DNA from: Eledone cirrhosa
Taxonomy: Eukaryota
DNA: 64,000 nt
NCBI GenBank assembly: GCA_964016885.1
Contig: OZ024747.1
Coordinates: 12,152,001-12,216,000, forward strand
Reading direction: 5' to 3'
Under the pieces are notes generated by a model that was not told the DNA's origin, did not search any database, and was given only the letters and a program-made list of their open reading frames with translations. Shown here piece by piece: positions 1,726 through 52,426 of the stretch (the stretch's first letter is position 1; every line of letters begins with the position of its first letter). The translations under genes and the position numbers were made by a program.

Positions 1726-2116
1726 CATAAATACATGAAAACATGCATCAGTGAACAAGCCATCTATCATTTCCTCACAGAAAAGACTACAATTGTGAGG
1801 TGACCTTGAAGTGACCTTGACATTAACATTAAACTAAGATCAATGATATATAAAGATGTCATAACATGAACCAGGCAGTTAGAGAGAGAGAGAGAACAGA
1901 GTGGTCAATACTGACCAGAGACTCAGTGTCAGACCAATACATTGGTCAAGTCACTCTTTACTTACCGTACGACCATGGCTGTCCACTATAGTAATCTACA
2001 CAATGAGAAAATGGGGTCTAGTGGTAACAATAGACTGTGGGAGGTTATAGAGACTGTGTGGGACTGGGGATAACAATAGGGGGACGTTTAACAGTTATGT
2101 AGAGTTAACAACAGTG
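1726..2116. repeat. ~390-bp near-identical duplicate of 11501-11904, containing the 30-nt exon cassette
   Basis: Direct comparison: the visible differences are (AG)n length with a short adjacent indel and two substitutions (gtaacaatag/gtaataatag, gggacgttta/gggacattta). Confidence 0.95.
1966..1995 (-). CDS. AFDN: Candidate 30-nt microexon, copy A (ITIVDSHGRT in phase 0)
   Basis: Same splice signals and sequence as 11753-11782. Confidence 0.6.
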
Positions 2117-3488: not shown

Positions 3489-3789
3489 AACATATAGGTA
3501 TTTTGTGTAACATTCTTTAGTGACAGGGGTGGGGGCAGGGGGCAGGAAATAGAGTGATACATGTGACAGGAAGGGAAAAGAAAGAGTAGAGGAGACAGAG
3601 ACAGTGAAAGTGAGATAGGAGGGAGAGAGGGTGAATGAATAGAAAAGAAGGAAAAGGTAGAGGAATGCCTAACAAGACATTCCAAGAAAAGATGGAGAGA
3701 TGAAGAGATAGACTAAGTTTTTTATGGTTATATTGGTCATACATTAGTGAAGATAGGAACAGGCAACAGTATGTAGTATCTTAAATATA

Positions 3790-6700
3790 CTAGTTACTAG
3801 TTCTATAGTTGGTACTAACTGAAAAGAGGTACAGGCAACAGTGCATGTAGAATCCTATATATACTAGTTCTATAGTCAGTACTAACAGAATGCAGGTGCA
3901 AGCAACAATGTACGGTGAATCCTATATATACCAGTTACTAGTTCTATAGTTGGTACTAACTGAAAAGAGGTACAGGCAACAGTGCATGTAGAATCCTATA
4001 TATACTAGTTCTATAGTCAGTACTAACAGAATGCAGGTGCAAGCAACAATGTACGGTGAATCCTATATATACCAGTTACTAGTTCTATAGTTGGTACTAA
4101 CTGAAAAGAGGTACAGGCAACAGTGCATGTAGAATCCTATATATACTAGTTCTATAGTCAGTACTAACAGAATGCAGGTGCAAGCAACAATGTACGGTGA
4201 ATCCTATATATACCAGTTACTAGTTCTATAGTTGGTACTAACTGAAAAGAGGTACAGGCAACAGTGCATGTAGAATCCTATATATACTAGTTCTATAGTC
4301 AGTACTAACAGAATGCAGGTGCAAGCAACAATGTACGGTGAATCCTATATATACCAGTTACTAGTTCTATAGTTGGTACTAACTGAAAAGAGGTACAGGC
4401 AACAGTGCATGTAGAATCCTATATATACTAGTTCTATAGTCAGTACTAACAGAATGCAGGTGCAAGCAACAATGTACGGTGAATCCTATATATACCAGTT
4501 ACTAGTTCTATAGTTGGTACTAACTGAAAAGAGGTACAGGCAACAGTGCATGTAGAATCCTATATATACTAGTTCTATAGTCAGTACTAACAGAATGCAG
4601 GTGCAAGCAACAATGTACGGTGAATCCTATATATACCAGTTACTAGTTCTATAGTTGGTACTAACTGAAAAGAGGTACAGGCAACAGTGCATGTAGAATC
4701 CTATATATACTAGTTCTATAGTCAGTACTAACAGAATGCAGGTGCAAGCAACAATGTACGGTGAATCCTATATATACCAGTTACTAGTTCTATAGTTGGT
4801 ACTAACTGAAAAGAGGTACAGGCAACAGTGCATGTAGAATCCTATATATACTAGTTCTATAGTCAGTACTAACAGAATGCAGGTGCAAGCAACAATGTAC
4901 GGTGAATCCTATATATACCAGTTACTAGTTCTATAGTTGGTACTAACTGAAAAGAGGTACAGGCAACAGTGCATGTAGAATCCTATATATACTAGTTCTA
5001 TAGTCAGTACTAACAGAATGCAGGTGCAAGCAACAATGTACGGTGAATCCTATATATACCAGTTACTAGTTCTATAGTTGGTACTAACTGAAAAGAGGTA
5101 CAGGCAACAGTGCATGTAGAATCCTATATATACTAGTTCTATAGTCAGTACTAACAGAATGCAGGTGCAAGCAACAATGTACGGTGAATCCTATATATAC
5201 CAGTTACTAGTTCTATAGTTGGTACTAACTGAAAAGAGGTACAGGCAACAGTGCATGTAGAATCCTATATATACTAGTTCTATAGTCAGTACTAACAGAA
5301 TGCAGGTGCAAGCAACAATGTACGGTGAATCCTATATATACCAGTTACTAGTTCTATAGTTGGTACTAACTGAAAAGAGGTACAGGCAACAGTGCATGTA
5401 GAATCCTATATATACTAGTTCTATAGTCAGTACTAACAGAATGCAGGTGCAAGCAACAATGTACGGTGAATCCTATATATACCAGTTACTAGTTCTATAG
5501 TTGGTACTAACTGAAAAGAGGTACAGGCAACAGTGCATGTAGAATCCTATATATACTAGTTCTATAGTCAGTACTAACAGAATGCAGGTGCAAGCAACAA
5601 TGTACGGTGAATCCTATATATACCAGTTACTAGTTCTATAGTTGGTACTAACTGAAAAGAGGTACAGGCAACAGTGCATGTAGAATCCTATATATACTAG
5701 TTCTATAGTCAGTACTAACAGAATGCAGGTGCAAGCAACAATGTACGGTGAATCCTATATATACCAGTTACTAGTTCTATAGTTGGTACTAACTGAAAAG
5801 AGGTACAGGCAACAGTGCATGTAGAATCCTATATATACTAGTTCTATAGTCAGTACTAACAGAATGCAGGTGCAAGCAACAATGTACGGTGAATCCTATA
5901 TATACCAGTTACTAGTTCTATAGTTGGTACTAACTGAAAAGAGGTACAGGCAACAGTGCATGTAGAATCCTATATATACTAGTTCTATAGTCAGTACTAA
6001 CAGAATGCAGGTGCAAGCAACAATGTACGGTGAATCCTATATATACCAGTTACTAGTTCTATAGTTGGTACTAACTGAAAAGAGGTACAGGCAACAGTGC
6101 ATGTAGAATCCTATATATACTAGTTCTATAGTCAGTACTAACAGAATGCAGGTGCAAGCAACAATGTACGGTGAATCCTATATATACCAGTTACTAGTTC
6201 TATAGTTGGTACTAACTGAAAAGAGGTACAGGCAACAGTGCATGTAGAATCCTATATATACTAGTTCTATAGTCAGTACTAACAGAATGCAGGTGCAAGC
6301 AACAATGTACGGTGAATCCTATATATACCAGTTACTAGTTCTATAGTTGGTACTAACTGAAAAGAGGTACAGGCAACAGTGCATGTAGAATCCTATATAT
6401 ACTAGTTCTATAGTCAGTACTAACAGAATGCAGGTGCAAGCAACAATGTACGGTGAATCCTATATATACCAGTTACTAGTTCTATAGTTGGTACTAACTG
6501 AAAAGAGGTACAGGCAACAGTGCATGTAGAATCCTATATATACTAGTTCTATAGTCAGTACTAACAGAATGCAGGTGCAAGCAACAATGTACGGTGAATC
6601 CTATATATACCAGTTACTAGTTCTATAGTTGGTACTAACTGAAAAGAGGTACAGGCAACAGTGCATGTAGAATCCTATATATACTAGTTCTATAGTCAGT

Positions 6701-7850
6701 ACTAACAGAATGCAGGTGCAAGCAACAATGTACGGTGAATCCTATATATACCAGTTACTAGTTCTATAGTTGGTACTAACTGAAAAGAGGTACAGGCAAC
6801 AGTGCATGTAGAATCCTATATATACTAGTTCTATAGTCAGTACTAACAGAATGCAGGTGCAAGCAACAATGTACAGTGAATCCTATATATACCAGTTACT
6901 AGTTCTATAGTTGGTACTAACTGAAAAGAGGTACAGGCAACAGTGCATGTAGAATCCTATATATACTAGTTCTATAGTCAGTACTAACAGAATGCAGGTG
7001 CAAGCAACAATGTACGGTGAATCCTATATATACCAGTTACTAGTTCTATAGTTGGTACTAACTGAAAAGAGGTACAGGCAACAGTGCATGTAGAATCCTA
7101 TATATACTAGTTCTATAGTCAGTACTAACAGAATGCAGGTGCAAGCAACAATGTACGGTGAATCCTATATATACCAGTTACTAGTTCTATAGTTGGTACT
7201 AACTGAAAAGAGGTACAGGCAACAGTGCATGTAGAATCCTATATATACTAGTTCTATAGTCAGTACTAACAGAATGCAGGTGCAAGCAACAATGTACGGT
7301 GAATCCTATATATACCAGTTACTAGTTCTATAGTTGGTACTAACTGAAAAGAGGTACAGGCAACAGTGCATGTAGAATCCTATATATACTAGTTCTATAG
7401 TCAGTACTAACAGAATGCAGGTGCAAGCAACAATGTACGGTGAATCCTATATATACCAGTTACTAGTTCTATAGTTGGTACTAACTGAAAAGAGGTACAG
7501 GCAACAGTGCATGTAGAATCCTATATATACTAGTTCTATAGTCAGTACTAACAGAATGCAGGTGCAAGCAACAATGTACAGTGAATCCTATATATACCAG
7601 TTACTAGTTCTATAGTTGGTACTAACTGAAAAGAGGTACAGGCAACAGTGCATGTAGAATCCTATATATACTAGTTCTATAGTCAGTACTAACAGAATGC
7701 AGGTGCAAGCAACAATGTACGGTGAATCCTATATATACCAGTTACTAGTTCTATAGTTGGTACTAACAGAACACAAGAGCAAGCAATAGTGTCTGGAGAA
7801 TCCTATATATACTAATTCTATAGTTGGTACTAACTGAAAAGAGAATCAGG
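3790..7850. repeat. Highly homogeneous 141-bp tandem satellite (~28 copies) built from two related ~70-bp subunits
   Basis: gaaaagagg recurs at 3821, 3962, 4103 and onward; both subunits share ctagttctatagt..gtactaac.gaa...gcaaca.tg...gaatcctatatata. Confidence 0.97.
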
Positions 7851-8284
7851 CAACAGTGTATGTAGAATATTATATATAGCAATTCAAATGATGGTACAAA
7901 CTTGAGACAGGAGGAAACAGCAGGTGTGTGTGTTTGTGTGTGTGTGTGGGTGTGTGTGTGTGCATGTGTGCGCGCACGCATGCATGTGTGTATCACCATA
8001 TAACATCAAATTTTCCACACTAGCATGGGTTAGATAAGTTGTCCGGTTGTGAGAAAAGTCTAATCAGATGACCATATCTTGCTCACACAGAATTGTTTCT
8101 AGCTTGGTGTCTAAGGCTGGATGCTCTTCCTAACACCAACCACATTTACAGTGTGGACTGGGTGCTTTTTGTTGTGGCACCAAAACAACGGGAGAGAGAG
8201 ACAGAGAGAGAGAGAAAGAGAGAGAAAGAGAGAGAAAGAAAGAGAGAGAAAGAAAGAGAGAGAAAGAGAGAGGGAGAAAGAGAG

Positions 8285-8329
<45 letters not shown>

Positions 8330-8467
8330 GAGAGAGAGAGAGAGAGAGTAACTTGTACTAGTTCTGTATTTTCTGAAAACATTCGACCAAAATTCAGTGA
8401 CAGAAATAGATAGATTTCAGAAAGTTTACTAAAAATTGACACAACATGACAATAAGATGCTATAAAT

Positions 8468-10760
8468 TATGTGTGTGGGAGTATGAGTATGTGTGTGGGA
8501 ACATGAGTATGTGTGTGGGAACATGAGTATGTGTGTGGGAGTATGAGTATGTGTGTGGGAGCATGAGTATGTGTGTGGGAACATGAGTATGTGTGTGTGG
8601 GAGCATGAGTATGTGTGTGGGAGCATGAGTATGTGTGTGGGAGCATGAGTATGTGTGTGGGAACATGAGTATGTGTGTGGGAGCATGAGTATGTGTGTGG
8701 GAACATGAGTATGTGTGTGGGAACATGAGTATGTGTGTGGGAGTATGAGTATGTGTGTGGGAGCATGAGTATGTGTGTGGGAGCATGAGTATGTGTGTGG
8801 GAGCATGAGTATGTGTGTGGGAGCATGAGTATGTGTGTGGGAGCATGAGTATGTGTGTGGGAGCATGAGTATGTGTGTGGGAGCATGAGTATGTGTGTGG
8901 GAACATGAGTATGTGTGTGGGAGTATGAGTATGTGTGTGGGAGCATGAGTATGTGTGTGGGAGCATGAGTATGTGTGTGGGAGCATGAGTATGTGTGTGG
9001 GAACATGAGTATGTGTGTGGGAACATGAGTATGTGTGTGGGAACATGAGTATGTGTGTGGGAGCATGAGTATGTGTGTGGGAGCATGAGTATGTGTGTGG
9101 GAGCATGAGTATGTGTGTGGGAGCATGAGTATGTGTGTGGGAGTATGAGTATGTGTGTGGGAGCATGAGTATGTGTGTGGGAGCATGAGTATGTGTGTGG
9201 GAGCATGAGTATGTGTGTGGGAGCATGAGTATGTGTGTGGGAACATGAGTATGTGTGTGGGAACATGAGTATGTGTGTGGGAGCATGAGTATGTGTGTGG
9301 GAACATGAGTATGTGTGTGGGAGCATGAGTATGTGTGTGGGAGCATGAGTATGTGTGTGGGAGCATGAGTATGTGTGTGGGAGCATGAGTATGTGTGTGG
9401 GAGCATGAGTATGTGTGTGGGAACATGAGTATGTGTGTGGGAGCATGAGTATGTGTGTGGGAGCATGAGTATGTGTGTGGGAGCATGAGTATGTGTGTGG
9501 GAGCATGAGTATGTGTGTGGGAACATGAGTATGTGTGTGGGAACATGAGTATGTGTGTGGGAACATGAGTATGTGTGTGGGAGCATGAGTATGTGTGTGG
9601 GAGCATGAGTATGTGTGTGGGAACATGAGTATGTGTGTGGGAGCATGAGTATGTGTGTGGGAACATGAGTATGTGTGTGGGAGCATGAGTATGTGTGTGG
9701 GAGCATGAGTATGTGTGTGGGAGCATGAGTATGTGTGTGGGAGCATGAGTATGTGTGTGGGAGCATGAGTATGTGTGTGGGAGCATGAGTATGTGTGTGG
9801 GAGCATGAGTATGTGTGTGGGAACATGAGTATGTGTGTGGGAGCATGAGTATGTGTGTGGGAACATGAGTATGTGTGTGGGAGCATGAGTATGTGTGTGG
9901 GAACATGAGTATGTGTGTGGGAACATGAGTATGTGTGTGGGAACATGAGTATGTGTGTGGGAGCATGAGTATGTGTGTGGGAACATGAGTATGTGTGTGG
10001 GAGCATGAGTATGTGTGTGGGAGCATGAGTATGTGTGTGGGAACATGAGTATGTGTGTGGGAGCATGAGTATGTGTGTGGGAGCATGAGTATGTGTGTGG
10101 GAGCATGAGTATGTGTGTGGGAGCATGAGTATGTGTGTGGGAGCATGAGTATGTGTGTGGGAGCATGAGTATGTGTGTGGGAGCATGAGTATGTGTGTGT
10201 GGGAGCATGAGTATGTGTGTGGGAGCATGAGTATGTGTGTGGGAGCATGAGTATGTGTGTGGGAGCATGAGTATGTGTGTGGGAGTATGAGTATGTGTGT
10301 GGGAACATGAGTATGTGTGTGGGAGCATGAGTATGTGTGTGGGAGCATGAGTATGTGTGTGGGAACATGAGTATGTGTGTGTGGGAGCATGAGTATGTGT
10401 GTGGGAGCATGAGTATGTGTGTGGGAGCATGAGTATGTGTGTGGGAGTATGAGTATGTGTGTGGGAACATGAGTATGTGTGTGGGAGCATGAGTATGTGT
10501 GTGGGAGTATGAGTATGTGTGTGGGAACATGAGTATGTGTGTGGGAGCATGAGTATGTGTGTGGGAGCATGAGTATGTGTGTGGGAGTATGAGTATGTGT
10601 GTGGGAACATGAGTATGTGTGTGGGAGCATGAGTATGTGTGTGGGAGCATGAGTATGTGTGTGGGAACATGAGTATGTGTGTGGGAGCATGAGTATGTGT
10701 GTGGGAGCATGAGTATGTGTGTGGGAGCATGAGTATGTGTGTGGGAACATGAGTATGTGT
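8468..10760. repeat. Minisatellite, 20-bp unit GAGCATGAGTATGTGTGTGG, ~114 copies
   Basis: Direct periodicity with gagca/gaaca/gagta variants; source of the spurious ~800-aa ORFs. Confidence 0.98.
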
Positions 10761-10802
10761 CTATGTGATATGTTGGAGGTGTATAGTATCTCATCCTCAT
10801 TA

Positions 10803-11752: not shown

Positions 11753-11782
11753 CGTACGACCATGGCTGTCCACTATAGTAAT
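11753..11782 (-). CDS. AFDN: Candidate 30-nt microexon, copy B (ITIVDSHGRT in phase 0)
   Basis: cccattttctcattgtgtag|ATTACTATAGTGGACAGCCATGGTCGTACG|gtaagt; consensus donor, 3n length, no stop; identical to 1966-1995. Confidence 0.6.
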
Positions 11783-36499: not shown

Positions 36500-36649
36500 C
36501 AGGATGAATTTCAACAAGGTATGGTAACTGGTACTGAGATGGTTCTGGAGAATGGTCCCGGTGTCGAAGATCATTGTGGGACACAGCTCGGATACGTTCC
36601 TTCTTCCTCTCATCTTGTGGTCTTAGTCTTAACTGGAAAATTATCGTTT
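36500..36649 (-). CDS. AFDN: Afadin exon, end of RA2 and linker to FHA
   Basis: ttctttag|AAACGATA...CATCCTG|gtagga; 150 nt, phase 1-1; ETIIFQLRLRPQDERKKERIR...QLPYLVEIHP (LPYLVE motif). Confidence 0.92.
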
Positions 36650-37339
36650 CTAAAGAACAACAACAAATCATAAATAGATAGTATACTAGAACACAGTGTA
36701 TAATTGTAGATTAAAGGAAAGTTAAGGAAGATACAGCCAGTTTTTTTAATTAGAATCCTTAGCTCAGAAACAAAGGTAAACACCTCCTTACACAAAAAAC
36801 TACGAGATAAGAGAAAGAGATATATTTTTCTGTGTACTGAGGAATATTTGAAATTAGTTCTACTTTTCAGTTGATTCTTTTCACAGCTAAGGCTACTCAT
36901 TTAGAAGCAACAGTTATATATAATTTATGGTTACTTTAATCATCAAATATAAACAGATATACAGAAAGGTGGTTATGAACATAAAAACAAGGGTAACTAA
37001 ATAAATATAACCAAGGTGGACTTAGCAAAGGATCAAACCATATGCCCTATATATATATATGTTTCTTGCTAGGTGTTACAAATATAAAACTCTAAACATT
37101 ATAAATACTGCCTTTTTTTATTACTTAGTCAATGAGGAGGGCAATGCCCATGGACTTTTTTAGGGGTGGGAGATAAAGAGGAAGCTATTGTAAAATTGTA
37201 AACTTAGTATGAGTGTTTGTAACAGAGAAAACTCTGCTAAAGAAACCCAAAGGCCAAGATGGTGGTGTTAAATGAGGTGATTATGTCTACCATCCAAGTA
37301 GCTTATGGCAGGATTTGAAATCAGAACACTGAAATCAAA

Positions 37340-38634: not shown

Positions 38635-39254
38635 ATCTATGTGTGTTTGTGTCTGTGTGTGTATCTGTGTGTTTGTGTGTGTGTGTAATAAATGATATTG
38701 GTTTTCATAAGATTGCAAACCTGAACTCAATATTATCTCTCTCACAGACACACACACACACTTACACACACAAGTGTGCGTGCATACAAATATGCTGAAT
38801 ATTCAAATAACCTTTGTTTCTATACAATAAGTGCCATGTTTAAATAACACCATACCCTGTTTGTTTACATTATATATCTATATATATATATATAAACCCA
38901 TGCTAGCGTGGAAGATAGACGTTAAACAATGATGATGATGGTGATATATATACATATATATATACACACACACATTATACATATAAATATAAATACATAC
39001 CCTGATCACATCACACACACAGACTGACACAGACCACAAGTGATAAAGGCTACGAACAATCAACCCATTTTTACCTGTAAAATGTACCTGGACTACATCA
39101 TCTAATGCATCTCGTTATAAACAAGAATGTAGTTTGAGTAAAATTTGGCAGCTAGTTCTAGCAGGTTGATTAACCACACAGAGGCTTCCTTGTTGTTGGC
39201 TCAACCAACTTTGTTTAAACCCCAGGTCTTTGGTAAAGGTGTGGGGGGGGGGGT

Positions 39255-39600: not shown

Positions 39601-41570
39601 GGATGTTGTTGGTAGTAATTGTTGCTGAGTAGAAAGAGTTACAGAAACAATGCAACTACCACCACCATCATCAACACCACCACCACCGTCATCATCATCA
39701 TCAACACCACCACTGTTACCACCACCATTGTCATCATCATCAACACCACCACCTCAGCCACCACCACCACCATCAATACCACCACCTCAGTCACCACCAC
39801 CACCACCATCAACACCACCACTGTTACCACCACCATTGTCATCATCATCATCAACACCACCACCACCACTGTTACCACCTCCATCATCATCACAACAACT
39901 GTCACCACCATCACCACCAGACAAAACACCACAACCACCATCACATCATTACCACCATCACCCACCCACCATCACCACCAGACAACCACCATCTCCACAA
40001 CCACCATCACCATACCATCATTACCACCATCACCACCATCTCCACAACCATCATTACCACCATCACCCACCCACCATTACCACCATCTCCACAACCACCA
40101 TCACCACAACCACCATCACCCACCTACCACTACCGACAAGACATCACCACCAGACAAAACACCATCACCACCATCACCATCATTACCAGACAAGACACCA
40201 CCCCACCACCACCCATTACCAGACAAGACACCACCCCACCACCCATTACTAGAGAAGACACCACCCCACCACCCATTACCAGACAAGACACCACCACTAC
40301 CAGCAGTCAGACACCACCCCACCACCGCCACCTCAGAAAATACCATCTCCACTGTCACCATTACCACCAGGGACACAAGTTGTTGTGTAGAGAGGGGGAA
40401 GGGAGGGTGGGAAGAGGGAAAAGAGAGGAGGAAAGGGAGGGGGAATGGAAAGTGAGGGAGGGGAGCTAAAGTAGATCATGAAGAAAAGAATATGTTTACA
40501 GAGACAAGCTTACTAAGTAGTAGTAGTGGTGGTGACGGTGGTGGTAGTGGTGGTAGTAGTAGAAGTAGTAGTAGTGGTAGTAGTAATAGTAGTGGTAGTA
40601 GTAGTAGTGGTGGTAGTAGTAGTAGTAGTGGTGGTAGTAGTGGTGGTGGTAGTAGTAGTGGTGGTGGTAGTAGTAGTGGTGGTGGTGGTGGCGGCGGTGG
40701 TGGTGGTATGGGGTGTAGGGACACAGAGTGGGTAGTGTAGAAACAGTCAATGAATATAAGAGTGTATAGTGATGTTGTTTCTCCGTCCAATTATCATTAT
40801 GGGACGAAATACTCTGTGGTATTTGTTCTGGCTCTTTATGTTCCGAATTCAAATCCCGCTGGAGCAAACTTTGCCTTTCATCCTTTCTGGGCTGATAAAA
40901 TGACGTACCAGTCAAGTATTTGGTTACAGAAGCCAAACAACAAAAGGACAAGGAAAATCATGCCATTTTTACCTCCCTACGGACAACTGACGCTGCACAC
41001 AGAAGAGCCGAACACCCACTGTCATCACCTCCATCTCTCTCTCTCATCCTCCCCATCTCTCTGTATTATGAGCAAATGGGGTCCCACGTGCTGGCTGCCC
41101 CACGGCCCCAGCGGACAGAATGGCGAAGGCGTTTCTGCGTTTCCCCGGAGGATGGTAAGGGAGATGCGCTGGAAGAGCCATTCCATCTCGTGAGGCTAAC
41201 ACCAGCGGCTGGCCAGCTCAGCGTCTATGGTAGTAAGTAGGGAGGTAGACCTGGAGCCAAGGAGACCAGAAGTCTCAACTGCAAATCTGTCAGAGAGCGA
41301 CTGATACTTGGAGTGTTTACCCTCCTCAGTATTTGGTTGTAGTTGGTACAGCTGAAACCTATGTAGGATTAGTTTGCCTCCTACATGGTTGCATGAGGAG
41401 CCTTTTGAAACAATGTCTTTTGATCAGATATTAATCCTAGTGCCAACCTTTTTAGTCTCTCTCATCTTATGACACACAAAGATTCTATGAAAAAAATTCC
41501 TTCAAGTATATCACATTGACCATTGCCAGGAGTCTGAGCTGAGATATAATCCTATGATTGGGTGACATAC

Positions 41571-41603
41571 CATACACCAGTTTCTTTCTTTCTTTCAAAA
41601 TTA
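41571..41603 (-). CDS. AFDN: Candidate alternative 33-nt microexon of afadin (VILKERKKLVY)
   Basis: ctcctcttgacctgcacatcaactccctgccag|TAATTTTGAAAGAAAGAAAGAAACTGGTGTATG|gtatgt; 3n length, phase 1-1, no stop, purine-rich GAAAGAAAG enhancer-like content. Confidence 0.55.
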
Positions 41604-43983
41604 CTGGCAGGGAGTTGATGTGCAGGTCAAGAGGAGTCAGAAGAAAACATGTGACACAACAACAGAACTTCTCTTGCAACTGCTACAGCTATGTCTGTCT
41701 GTCTGTCTGTCCTATAGTGGTTATGTCATTATGTCAACCACAAATGAACCTACAACAAACATGGGAAGGCCCCTTTGTAAAACTTCATTAGCGAAGCCAA
41801 GTCATGATGATGACAAGCTGGGAACTATATTATAATAATAACAACAACAACATATTCTCTTTCCCATAGCAGTATAGATAGAATGGGGTTACAGTTTCAT
41901 GGGAACCACGGACTGTTATAATTTTGGTTATTTTTTAAAATACAAATCTTCATTCTCTTCCTATAAGAAAACCACTCAACCATGTTTGATTGTGTGTATG
42001 TGTCATATATATATATATATATATATAATGCGTGTATGTGTATGTATATTATTGTTATATGTATGTATAGATATGTATATGCATGTATGTGTGTGCATAT
42101 GTTTTGTTCATCAACCCAACATAATAGTTTAACCAAGCAACAATAAGACTTAGTAAGTTAGTCTCACTCGAAGTCAATAACTCATTGTGAGTAATGTCTG
42201 TTACTCACAATGAGTGAGAATAAAGAAGGTAGCTAGTATATACCACATTGTCATATACTAAAGTACAGACTAGTGTGTGAGAAAGAGGATATATTCACTA
42301 TAGATGTAGTGTAAAGATTATATCTATTATATATATGTGTGTGTGTGTGTGTGTGTTCCTGTTTTTGAAAGAGGTGCTCTATATCTCTGTGAGCTGCTAG
42401 ACATGACTAAAAGGAGCGGTTAGGAAGCACATCTGGCTGCAAAACATTGTCTCAAATCATCTCAAATGAAGTCCAATCCATGCCAACATGGAAAAGTGGG
42501 CATGATGATGATGATGATATAAGTGTTTTTAATTCATTTCCATCACTATGGCAAAGATCAGCCATGCAGATCCCATGTTAAATTTTCTATTTATTTCAGG
42601 GTCCTTTCTGAAAACTGAACACCCATCCTGTTGTGACCCTTTTAGTCATTCCTTACAACATGTAGGGACATGATGTATCTATTCTAAACCAGATACACAT
42701 AGTAAATATGTGTGTGTGTGCGTGGTGTGTGCGTGGTGTGTGTGCGTGGCGTGTGTGTTAGAGAGAAGTGTGAGAATGAGGGAGAGAGAAAAAAGTGAAT
42801 GTGTGTTTATGTGAGAGGGAGAGAGAGAGAAGTGTGTGAGAGGGTAAGTACATGGTGTGGATGTGTGTTTAAATGTAAGGAAACACTTCCACTGAAAATA
42901 TCTACACCATACACACACCATCACATACACACACTACACACACCATCACAGACATATACCACACACACACCATCACAGACATACACCACAGACATACACC
43001 ACACACACACACCATCACAGACACACATACACACACCACACATACAGACACACACCATCACAGACACACACTACACACACCTACACACACCACACACACC
43101 ATCACAGACACACACACACACACCGTCACAGACACACACATACACACACCGTCACAGACACACACACCATCACAGAAACACACATACACACACCACGCAC
43201 CATCACAGACACACAGACACATACACACTACACAGACACACACACACAATCAGACATACACAGACACACCATCACAGACACACATACACACACACACCAC
43301 ATAGAGACAACACACACACACAAACACACACATACACTGAGAACATTATAATGACACATTAACATGAAACCAACACCAGAAACAGAAACAGATCAAGTCT
43401 TAAGATTTCTATATTCCAACAAAACAAAACATACACAAGCAAAAGAAACTATTAGTAAAGATTCTGTGCTACTATTTACTGCACCATTGTGCACCAGATT
43501 CACCAATTGTCTTACCACAGCACCATTGCATTATATACTACACATGTCACTACTGAACTGCATGTAACATCTACCAGACAGACTTATGTGTGCACTAGTG
43601 TTGTAAAATAATACATGGGTCAAGCTGTTTGTAGGTTAGTATTCACTAGTACTGGTTAGTTGATACAAGTCTATGTATACTTATACACACATATATACAT
43701 ATCAAGTTTAATATAGAAATAGTTTCTATAGGACTAGAACTGTTTCATTCAAAAGAAATCATTATCATGATTTCTATAAAATAATAGACAATGTCTTTCA
43801 TTAGAAATATAACAAATACAATCTATAAATGTGTCTAAAACTCAGTTTACTTTTATGAGGATTGAGTATTTTAATGACCAACATGCATACTACTAGTGAC
43901 AGTGACAAATATGACAAATATAAGATGCCAACGAAAACACGACCATAACAATATTACTAAACGGACTACCGTCCGTTTAGGAT

Positions 43984-44340
43984 ATAGCCAGTGACTGACC
44001 ACTTGTCAACTATAGCCAGTGACACTAACCACTGTCAACTATAGCCAGTGACTATAACCACTGTTAACTATAGCCAGTGACTATAACCACTGTTGTCAAC
44101 TATAGCCAGTGACTATAACCACTGTTGTCAACTATAGCCAGTGACTATAACCACTGTTGTCAACTATAGCCAGTGACTATAACCACTGTTGTCAACTATA
44201 GCCAGTGACTATAACCACTGTCAACTATAGCCAGTGACTATAACCACTGTTGTCAACTATAACCAGTGATACTAACCACTGTTGTCAACTATAGTCAGTG
44301 ACTAACTACTGTTGTCAACTATAGTCAGTGACTGATGTCA
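43984..44340. repeat. Minisatellite, ~26-29-bp unit GTCAACTATAGCCAGTGACTATAACCACT(GTT)
   Basis: Direct periodicity. Confidence 0.9.
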
Positions 44341-45183
44341 AACTATAGTGAACAACAAGATTTGGTAGGTTTAAATTACACTACTAAACAAACTGCTAAG
44401 CATGCAATTAATGTAATTAAATGTAAGCAAGAGAACAACATTTTCAGGCCACTTTTCCTGCTAAAACAAGTGTTACCTTTGTGGACCCCATGACAACCTT
44501 TTCCATTTTGCCCTATCATCTACATCCCCTTCTCACCAGTCTCCTGGCTTTTATTTCCTTCTCCATTATTTTTACCCTTACTCTTCTTGATCTTCTTCAG
44601 CTCATCCACCTTTATTTATATTACTTCCATCCTTCCCCAACACATGACCCAGCCATCTCACTCCACTTTACTTCATAACATCCATCACTGGCCTACTCCT
44701 CTCACCCAATCACTTCCATCCTTCCTCAACACATGACCCAGCCATCTCCACTTTACTTCATAACATCCATCACTGGATCTACTCCTCTCACCCAATCACT
44801 CTCATCCTTCCCCAACACATGACCCAGCCATCTCATTTTACTTAATAACATCCATCACTCGATCTACACCACTCAGTCACTTCCACCCATCCTCAACACA
44901 TGCCATAGTTACTATGATAACCTATGACCTGGGTGTTGAAAAAAAAAAATATTTTCCAATCTTAAACATATTTTTAATGAGTTACTTTGGTTATCCCCCA
45001 AATGATCAGACTGGCATGTAGGCAACTGATAAATAATGTAGATCCACCATGAAGATATATATATTACACATATATACACAGTGTATATATGCTTTTACAT
45101 AGTGTGTCTATGCATATATCTATACATACACACACATTATCAAACCCATGCTAGCGTGGATGATGGACGTTAAACGATGATGA

Positions 45184-45223
<40 letters not shown>

Positions 45224-45574
45224 TATGTTTATGCATACATCTATACACACACACACATATATATATACATATATACACACACACACACATATGTATAATT
45301 ATTCATATACCTACATCTGTTAAGTAACAATCACAGTAGACTAAGATCTTTTTTACAACCACCACCCAATTCTCTCATATATATTATTTTATTTTTTTCA
45401 CCTGTGTTAAATAAACAAACAAACAGATAAATGGCCACATTAGATGAAAGATGTTTCTCAAAGAAGAGATCTGAAGAATGAAGACATTCCAGGGAGGGAA
45501 ACTGAGGCAGTGTGGAGGCTGAAAGTGATGGAGGTTGGTTGACTGTACCAACTGCATTGGGTATTGTTACATAC

Positions 45575-45604
45575 CATTCTGACAAATGCTCAGTTGTTGT
45601 GCTG
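45575..45604 (-). CDS. AFDN: Candidate alternative 30-nt microexon (27 nt via NAGNAG acceptor) of afadin (AAQQLSICQN)
   Basis: ctgttctctgttgctctttatgtgtttacattag|CAGCACAACAACTGAGCATTTGTCAGAATG|gtatgt; 3n length, phase 1-1, no stop. Confidence 0.55.
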
Positions 45605-47449
45605 CTAATGTAAACACATAAAGAGCAACAGAGAACAGACTTCTTGTGTGTGGGAGGTGGGCAGAGGGGAAAAGAAATCTGTTTACTTTATTGCCTCTGT
45701 CGCCTCCACCCACAACCACCACCACTACCACCACAAACAGTGAACACCCCTTACCAATCACCACTACTACCACCACCACCATCACAAACATCAGGAACAC
45801 CTTATGTTTGTTTGCAACTTATCTTGGGAGAGATAGATAGATGGACCAATCAGAATGTGCTGACTGACAAAGAATACTATAGAGATAAAACAGTATGTAA
45901 ATCTCTTAAGACAAGCATTCCTTCGAAAAAATATCCCCCCCCCCCAACAAAAAGGTTCCTTCCAAAAAAATCCCCCCACCCCCACCCCCAATAAAGAGAA
46001 TTTCAAAAGAACCCACATTTTAGTAACCTCATGCCCCTATTTTTCTTCTTTTTTTTTGCCAAGGTAAAAGTAAAAAATCTAATTATATACAGATTTATCT
46101 AAAATCTGTCACATTAATTCCCCACCTCCCAAAGCTTCTTCAGAAACATTTCTCTTACATGAAAACAGATAAGACAATATGCCTGACTGCTAATATCAGT
46201 CTAGCAGAAAAAAATATGGAATATAAAGTAGGTTGAAGAAGTTTTTGTTGCTGTTGTTGTCATGGTTTTTGAGCCATGCTTCTTCCTACAAGCTCAATTT
46301 TGTTTATGGTTGTTGTTACAGCCCACAACTACACAGGTTTAGCTAGTCTCCTACAAGGTTGTATCTCAGAAGGTTTCTCGGGTGTTTTAATGATAGGGGC
46401 CCCAGTCGTATCATGTTATTGTTACAACTCATACCTATGCAAGTTCAGCTGACCTCTTACAAGGATGCATCCCATAGGAGGTTCCTTGGGTGTTTTAATT
46501 TTAGCCACCCCTGCTACTATCATGAAAAGTAATGTGAAATAAAATGTCTTGCACAAGAACACAAATGTGTCACCTGATTCAGGAATTGATCCTACAACCT
46601 TATTATTGTGAGTCCACCACACTAACCACTAGGCCACACACATTCAATTCTACTTAAGAATTTATGATTGAAGAATGATTGTTTGTTCAGGAGATTTAGG
46701 ATAAAAAAACATGGGGACTCATTTGAAAGAGGATATAGAAGATTCTGTTTCATTTTTTTAAACTCTTTCATTATCATATTTCTAATGAGAAAACACTCCC
46801 TGTAATTTGGAGGAATTTAGTAAAATAACTAATTTTATCATTACCAAGCTGTTGTTGGAATATAACTCAAAGGTTCTTATATAAAATTATTGAAGGTTTT
46901 TAGATAAATATAAACACCTTAAAATATAAAACTTTATCTTAGAACAAGGGGCACATGAAATTGCCCCTAGTTCTATAACACAAAATGTTTGTTTTGAAAT
47001 GTTTACATTTATCTAAAAAAACCTTCGAATGCAATTTTTTTAATTATTACTTAAACACCAACTTAATAGTTATATTACTAAACTCCCCCAATCTTTTTTA
47101 TTTTCAATTTGAGTGTTTCTTTTTAGGAATAAATATGGTAACAAAAGGGTTACTATTCCAATCACTAACTACACTGCTAAAACTAATATATTTCTATGGA
47201 ATTTGCACAAGATTCCTTCAAAAAAACAATATCCAAAAGTTGCATGCTTACAACAATGAAATTTATTATAAATCTTCAAAAAGTCACAAAAATCAAATAA
47301 AGACAAAAAAAAAATTAATTATTAATTATTAGTTAAGTTTGAATTGCAGGCAAGAAAACCCTACTGAAAGAGAATCAATCGGGTGGAATAACCAAAAATA
47401 ACAATACAATCAGATGCAATCATCAAACAGATGAAAGGAAGCTTCCTAC

Positions 47450-47473
47450 CTTCAGTTTGTTCTGACTCCTTTT
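47450..47473 (-). CDS. AFDN: Candidate alternative 24-nt microexon of afadin (EKESEQTE)
   Basis: tgtttctgtctgatcttctcag|AAAAGGAGTCAGAACAAACTGAAG|gtagga; 3n length, phase 1-1, no stop, good pyrimidine tract; no transcript evidence. Confidence 0.55.
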
Positions 47474-48961: not shown

Positions 48962-49076
48962 CATTTTTGGAAACATGTTGAAGTAAAATAGACAAGGGAT
49001 AATCATCATCATTGACAAAACTCTCTTCACCAAGTGATCCGCCATGGTATTCTCTCTCACCTTTCGGAATTGTCAC
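48962..49076 (-). CDS. AFDN: Afadin exon, RA2 domain central part
   Basis: ttccag|GTGACA...AAAAATG|gtatgt; 115 nt, phase 0 to 1; VTIPKGEREYHGGSLGEESFVNDDDYPLSILLQHVSKN (DDD.PL.I motif of RA2). Confidence 0.9.
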
Positions 49077-52268: not shown

Positions 52269-52426
52269 CTGGACTAAGCAATATTTATAAGCCTCTTCTT
52301 TAGGATATCCATACTTCTCTAAGGTTTCTTCAACGACAAAGCTGGCAGTATCTGTTGCAGAGACTAAGAGTGTCTTATAGGGGATATTCGGGCTCAGAGC
52401 TTCCCCATAAATCTTCAGCATGCCAC
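52269..52426 (-). CDS. AFDN: Afadin exon, RA2 domain N-terminal part
   Basis: ttccag|GTGGCATG...GTCCAG|gtaagt; 158 nt, phase 1 to 0; GGMLKIYGEALSPNIPYKTLLVSATDTASFVVEETLEKYGYPKEEAYKYCLVQ. Confidence 0.96.

Follow-up and report, generated by a model that had tools for sequence, protein, structure and literature searches.

We analysed a 64,000-nucleotide (nt) stretch of the Eledone cirrhosa genome (contig OZ024747.1, positions 12,152,001 to 12,216,000; hereafter the window), whose minus strand carries exons of afadin/canoe, a core scaffold of cell junctions and synapses. A previous examination of the letters by themselves (the sequence-only reading) had proposed three functional microexons, here called units 1 to 3, in the intron that interrupts the second Ras-association domain (RA2) of this gene. 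Our analysis suggests, with a probability of about 0.72, that one of them, a 24-nt cassette microexon, is very likely real, that the other two are likely cryptic, and that the residues inserted into a loop of RA2 more likely alter a secondary surface than the contact with a GTPase. The candidate units and the elements next to them are as follows.

47450..47473, minus strand: unit 1, putative 24-nt cassette microexon encoding EKESEQTE, ortholog of the optional Octopus sinensis insert AKVSEQIE (5/8 residues identical; isoform X1/X2 difference; splice scores).
47403..47449, minus strand: intron flank downstream of unit 1, partly conserved (fit to the O. bimaculoides read-through peptide).
45575..45604, minus strand: unit 2, 30/27-nt candidate with a NAGNAG acceptor, likely cryptic (scores 1.6/3.0; single-copy; absent from 24 cephalopod proteins).
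41571..41603, minus strand: unit 3, 33-nt candidate, likely a cryptic site in an antisense relic of a long interspersed nuclear element, LINE (scores 0.2/3.0; LINE similarity).
About 41530..41813, plus strand: decayed 3' fragment of a retrotransposon without long terminal repeats, non-LTR (blastn/tblastx to related copies).

The coordinates, lengths, donors and peptides of the three units were as the sequence-only reading had given them, and its statement that they can be combined freely also held: every unit is a multiple of three and all 12 of 12 combinations are free of stops. Splice sites were scored with an ad hoc position matrix (acceptor/donor), and 200 block-wise, local dinucleotide shuffles of the intron served as the chance background. 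Unit 1, with a CAG acceptor and a G|GTAGGA donor, scored 6.9/4.6, the best combination in the intron, and a unit as good appeared in 0 of 200 shuffled introns at a threshold chosen after the fact. It alone among the three stands out from the background. Units 2 and 3 scored 1.6/3.0 and 0.2/3.0, and at a threshold that units 1 and 2 pass, 29.5% of the shuffle runs reached the count of two seen in the intron. At the loosest threshold seven units were observed against a shuffle mean of 1.8 (0/200 shuffles reached seven), but four of the seven sit in simple TG or GGT repeats, which are lost on shuffling. Unit 1 is stop-free, preserves the frame, has its own acceptor and donor and is no longer than the 27 nt that we allowed for a microexon; an alternative donor extension of the upstream exon was ruled out by its position 1.5 kb inside the intron.

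Two further exon-like units were noticed in the same intron. A G|GTATGT unit that the sequence-only reading had left out (39001-39023, minus strand, 23 nt, 2.7/3.5) is not a multiple of three and scores better than units 2 and 3, and a 42-nt unit with good splice scores (46159-46200, minus strand) contains in-frame stops. The former shifts the frame. Both are probably cryptic sites and possibly poison exons.

The evidence from relatives also concerns unit 1. Two RefSeq isoforms of O. sinensis afadin, X1 (XP_036361694.1) and X2 (XP_036361695.1), differ solely by AKVSEQIE, which stands in X1 between QHVSKN and ETIIFQL; six of the seven O. sinensis isoforms have this insert, and the exon is already part of the automatic annotation of that species. 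Gene, junction and insert length are the same as for unit 1, and EKESEQTE ranks at the top of the 8,298 stop-free 8-mers of the Eledone intron in its match to AKVSEQIE. The single O. vulgaris model (1/1) also has the insert, the Argonauta afadin model lacks it, and two of the three O. bimaculoides proteins that cover the site splice to the insert and then continue into intron sequence, which extends the conservation of unit 1 to three Octopus species. The peptide encoded by this read-through was compared with the flank downstream of unit 1: 34 of 48 bases are compatible with its back-translation, a fit reached by 0 of 600 random intron sites, or by 3 of 600 once the two donor codons are excluded. 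We regard it as very likely, on these sequence comparisons and its splice scores, that unit 1 is a real microexon. The two O. bimaculoides proteins concerned (XP_052826944.1 and XP_014786507.1) read through the microexon donor and lack the ETIIFQL exon, and their RA2 domains are probably mis-modelled. No paper on this exon was found in the literature searched, although bioRxiv supplements or public splicing databases covering O. bimaculoides may list it.

The host gene was identified from its exons. Homolog searches return afadins, the exons of the window tile residues 101-1012 of O. sinensis afadin at 64-97% identity with the RA-RA-FHA-DIL-PDZ architecture of afadin/canoe, and in a tree of 21 rows (the window and 20 chosen lophotrochozoan proteins) the window groups among the octopods with support 100/99. 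The sister group of the octopods in this tree consists of two Logan clusters, presumably squid or cuttlefish. A protein search with the downstream exon as query gave no match. Three exons frame the region of interest.

52269..52426, minus strand: afadin exon with the first half of RA2, strands 1-2 and helix 1 (Pfam RA match, E 2.4e-12; 95% identical to O. sinensis afadin).
48962..49076, minus strand: constitutive RA2 exon ending in QHVSKN, phase-1 donor G|GTATGT (covered by the spliced contig of an RNA-like run).
36500..36649, minus strand: constitutive exon opening with the last RA2 strand, ETIIFQLR (joined straight to 48962 in the spliced contig).

The intron between the last two exons (48961-36650, minus strand) measures 12,312 nt and is in phase 1 inside RA2, in agreement with the 12.3 kb reported from the letters. 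It splits the domain after the short second helix and ahead of the last strand, as judged from the alignment to mouse RA2 (1WXA) and from AlphaFold models, which likewise support the earlier placement of the insertion site just before that strand. At the same codon of RA2, a clam metagenome contig is interrupted by a phase-1 intron of 375 nt, and several arthropod afadin proteins read through into intron at the equivalent glycine, which indicates an old intron position. At the opening of the last RA2 strand (window 36649-36650) most afadins have glycine, octopods have glutamate, and the two Logan cephalopod clusters mostly have aspartate.

Transcript evidence in Eledone itself comes from four runs that contain the gene, none of which is recorded as RNA. 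Run X1 covers the exons and not the unique intron sequence, whereas runs X2-X4 cover the intron. Run X1 also yields a spliced contig and thus behaves like RNA, its kind and tissue being absent from the record. This 4,033-nt contig, whose loose end is the upstream exon, joins 48962 directly to 36649 (record positions 2466/2465) with no insert. The spliced contig therefore skips all three units. Lack of cover over units 1 and 2 in this run is by itself no evidence, and that unit 3 is skipped there follows solely from the direct junction. Because it is one sample and contigs drop minor forms, run X1 demonstrates skipping and not the absence of inclusion. We infer that unit 1 is included in this species in some tissues or stages.

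Units 2 and 3 present a different picture. Their peptides occur in 0 of 24 cephalopod proteins that cover the site, namely 12 from octopods and 12 from two Logan clusters (for one of these, 15 of its 19 members are listed). Unit 2 has a single match in the genome assembly, is thus single-copy, and combines a weak acceptor with the lack of a YTRAY branch motif in 100 nt. Unit 3 follows a 66-nt zone free of AG and lies in a neighbourhood sharing 70% identity with a 3' segment of a LINE on another contig (C1). The C1 locus carries AG and G|GTGTGT at places matching the splice signals of unit 3 and, on its opposite strand, the C-terminal part of a retrotransposon open reading frame (ORF). Of 2,138 candidates in the genome assembly 150 were scored, and 56 of these matched the C1 locus; one related copy carries RVT_1, and the Atlas match for the LINE is 'endonuclease-reverse transcriptase family' (score 0.95). 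These are dispersed copies linked to a reverse transcriptase ORF, as in a non-LTR relic. We take the element to be of the RTE-like clade. Pfam returned no family for the C-terminal ORF of the LINE or for three window ORFs near unit 3. Since the related copy already has AG and GT, the splice-like signals of unit 3 are largely inherited from the element. Units 2 and 3 are likely cryptic sites: it is improbable that unit 2 is a real exon and distinctly more so that unit 3 is, although low-level exonization of the latter is possible.

The consequences for the protein were considered with AlphaFold models of O. sinensis RA2 in its two forms, with the insert and without it. All five strands are kept in both (mean pLDDT, the predicted local distance difference test score, 85.0 and 86.6); in the model with the insert, helix 2, which otherwise occupies residues 83-91, spans 83-96, and the loop leading to the last strand is longer. 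The best structural match among Foldseek candidates was mouse afadin RA2, 1WXA (Z 14.0, root-mean-square deviation 2.4 over 105 residues), with which the Rasip1 RA domain ties within 1 in Z; the domain and fold are thus those of Drosophila Canoe and mammalian afadin RA2. The optional insert differs from the situation in those proteins, being absent from 12 of 12 elephant proteins covering the site and from the dipteran proteins compared. Inclusion of unit 1 would place a mostly acidic stretch of eight residues in the loop that precedes the last RA2 strand, with the fold predicted to be kept and helix 2 predicted to be lengthened. The peptide of the putative Eledone inclusion form, EKESEQTE, is more acidic than AKVSEQIE of O. 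sinensis.

Published models pair Rap1 with strand 2 of each RA domain and note conserved RA-specific residues on the back face as well (PMC11698047). In the same report, fly RA1 and RA2 bind Rap1 similarly and have different roles, and the dissociation constant of Canoe RA2 for Rap1 is given as 8.7 uM (PMC11698047); in pull-downs, human RA2 by itself captures RAP2C and, weakly, HRAS and RAP2B (PMC9355967). Strand 2, on which Rap and Ras dock, would be unaltered by the insert, and for this reason an effect on a secondary surface of RA2 appears more likely than one on the core GTPase contact. The insert may thus act on other partners, or on packing against RA1 or FHA.

Several observations weigh against the interpretation of one real microexon with two cryptic neighbours. 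The match of EKESEQTE to AKVSEQIE scores 20 and that of the runner-up site 19, a lead of one point, so the orthology of unit 1 also rests on its splice sites and flank. Three of the eight residues vary among octopods, a sign of weak constraint. What is known of the Octopus isoforms comes from gene models, of which the one for O. vulgaris may derive from that of O. sinensis. No inclusion read or contig was found in the runs from Eledone, the single RNA-like run showing just skipping. The insert block, at a mean pLDDT of 69, is the least certain part of its region of the model, and the absence of units 2 and 3 from the proteins of relatives is compatible with young or rare exons.

These points leave room for other explanations of the intron. 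The most far-reaching is that of the sequence-only reading, by which all three units are functional neural microexons controlled by enhancer of microexons (eMIC) proteins and give combinatorial RA2 inserts. All units are multiples of three and none of the 12 combinations has a stop. The donor of units 2 and 3, ATG|GTATGT, is also that of the upstream exon, and three of the four such minus-strand 9-mers of the window lie here. The two units with UGC upstream of the acceptor that had been reported are these same two (TGC at -23 in unit 2); with the long AG-free zone of unit 3, they recall fly eMIC exons, which are described as having weak 3' sites, long AG-free zones and UGC (10.1101/2021.02.24.432780). 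A Logan cephalopod cluster, moreover, has two different inserts at the site. Against this stand the 0 of 24 cephalopod proteins with unit 2 or 3, scores of both units at the level of shuffled sequence, the position of unit 3 in a LINE relic whose relative already has AG and GT, and the presence of TGC within 25 nt of 58 of the 329 YAG sites of the intron. Of the targets of SRRM3/4, 74-79% carry UGC, which is not a strict requirement (10.1101/2024.09.17.613571). Unit 1 shows 0 of 3 fly traits: its acceptor is strong, no TGC occurs within 100 nt, and the nearest AG is at -24. Its likeness to the microexons of SRRM3/4 and Srrm234 is that of a short, frame-preserving cassette, a multiple of three in length, in a surface loop of a protein-interaction domain. 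The UGC argument thus fits just the two units that lack support, and a search for PF15230 (SRRM_C) was blank in the genome assembly but also blank in control genomes. Neural inclusion of unit 1 is possible, at about even odds, and joint function of all three units very improbable: the proposal of three microexons stands for unit 1, through the Octopus isoforms and models and its splice scores, and is unsupported for the other two, as are eMIC regulation and the 12 combinatorial inserts, given that neither unit has left a trace in the 24 cephalopod proteins, that unit 2 scores at chance level and that unit 3 lies in the relic.

A more limited possibility is that unit 1 is real and unit 2 a second, lineage-restricted or rarely included microexon, with unit 3 cryptic or a piece of LINE exonized at a low level. 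The single-copy status of unit 2, its donor identical to that of the upstream exon, its TGC at -23 and the stacked inserts of another cephalopod cluster are in keeping with this; the lack of protein evidence, the weak acceptor without YTRAY and the chance-level score make it unlikely. Alternatively, unit 1 might be used in Octopus and decayed or silent in Eledone, none of the three units being included. The sole transcript evidence in this species does skip unit 1, the Argonauta model lacks the insert too, three of its eight residues are not those found in Octopus, and UGC is missing. Nonetheless, the frame, the length and both splice sites are intact, the sites outscore those of several constitutive exons, the flank shows partial conservation, and a single sample of contigs would lose minor isoforms; we therefore consider a silent unit 1 quite unlikely, and a cassette microexon with two cryptic neighbours remains the preferred explanation.

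The same RA2 site was compared across 399 proteins and located by pattern in 270, with the usual spacing of 14 residues in 221, a shorter one in 21 and a longer one in 28. Pairs of forms with and without an insert occur in O. sinensis, in a Logan cephalopod cluster (none, GRVVINEE or GNNK), in Mercenaria (DSTSDDDQ), in Biomphalaria (GQ, GQGKR) and in the true bugs Rhodnius (GSPLI) and Halyomorpha (VSIQPT); none were found in the Mya, Crassostrea virginica, Mytilus, scallop, Lingula, termite, bee, prawn and elephant clusters. Proteins P0137, P0143, P0190, P0239, P0275 and P0337 represent these optional inserts of 2-8 residues in the clam, the snails, the two true bugs and the cephalopod cluster. 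The snail inserts, whose first residue is glycine, may be shifted donors, an explanation closed to inserts that begin with A, D or V. Within the Logan cluster the form without an insert is on 36 contigs, GRVVINEE on 11 and GNNK on 1, which suggests sample-dependent inclusion. Homology of the octopod insert to the 8-residue inserts of the clam or the Logan cluster was considered and is not supported: BLOSUM scores range from -3 to 8 (-3 and 3 for the Logan insert), and 103 to 2,201 of 8,298 random 8-mers do as well. The 375-nt clam intron is without such a unit. Independent gains fit these data, because the 8-residue inserts are not detectably related and the one clam intron lacks a unit.

From these protein sequences, the RA2 loop looks like a site of recurrent insertion. 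A bolder and tentative proposal, which we hold to be rather less probable than its negation, is that the ancient phase-1 intron is a hotspot in which octopods, other cephalopods, a venerid clam and true bugs would have gained independent, unrelated microexons of 4-8 residues in one loop, retuning the RA2 partner surface in neurons, with cephalopods doing likewise at a second site in PDZ. The recurrent inserts resemble the type I convergent tissue-specific exons of spg/DOCK3-4 and syd/JIP3-4, where several lineages have unrelated short inserts at equivalent positions of an intron; the main text of that report (10.64898/2026.09.05.749416) does not mention afadin. A further difference is that the afadin inserts outside cephalopods are known from proteins, and their status as discrete exons is putative.

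The PDZ site came to light as a second afadin microexon candidate, located after SIVAAK (11753-11782 and 1966-1995, minus strand). It is 30 nt long, in phase 0 with tgtag/gtaagt signals, and encodes ITIVDSHGRT, identical to an optional O. sinensis insert of which isoform X5 has no copy, X3 one and X1 two in tandem. The two near-identical copies in the window lie 9.8 kb apart in a duplicated block of ~500 bp and are the only two matches in the genome assembly. At the same place a Logan cephalopod cluster has a different 10-residue insert, TKDPDYDIQK. This candidate is better supported than units 2 and 3. The intron region of the PDZ copies also holds a 141-bp tandem array of ~4.1 kb at ~99% identity (window 3760-7884) and a second array of ~2.3 kb (about 8450-10800) that gives long repetitive ORFs.

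Together, the optional insert in RA2 and the unrelated inserts at the same position in other lineages would point to a surface that evolution keeps adjusting. The pairs of isoforms with and without the insert may also offer ready-made material for an assay of RA2.

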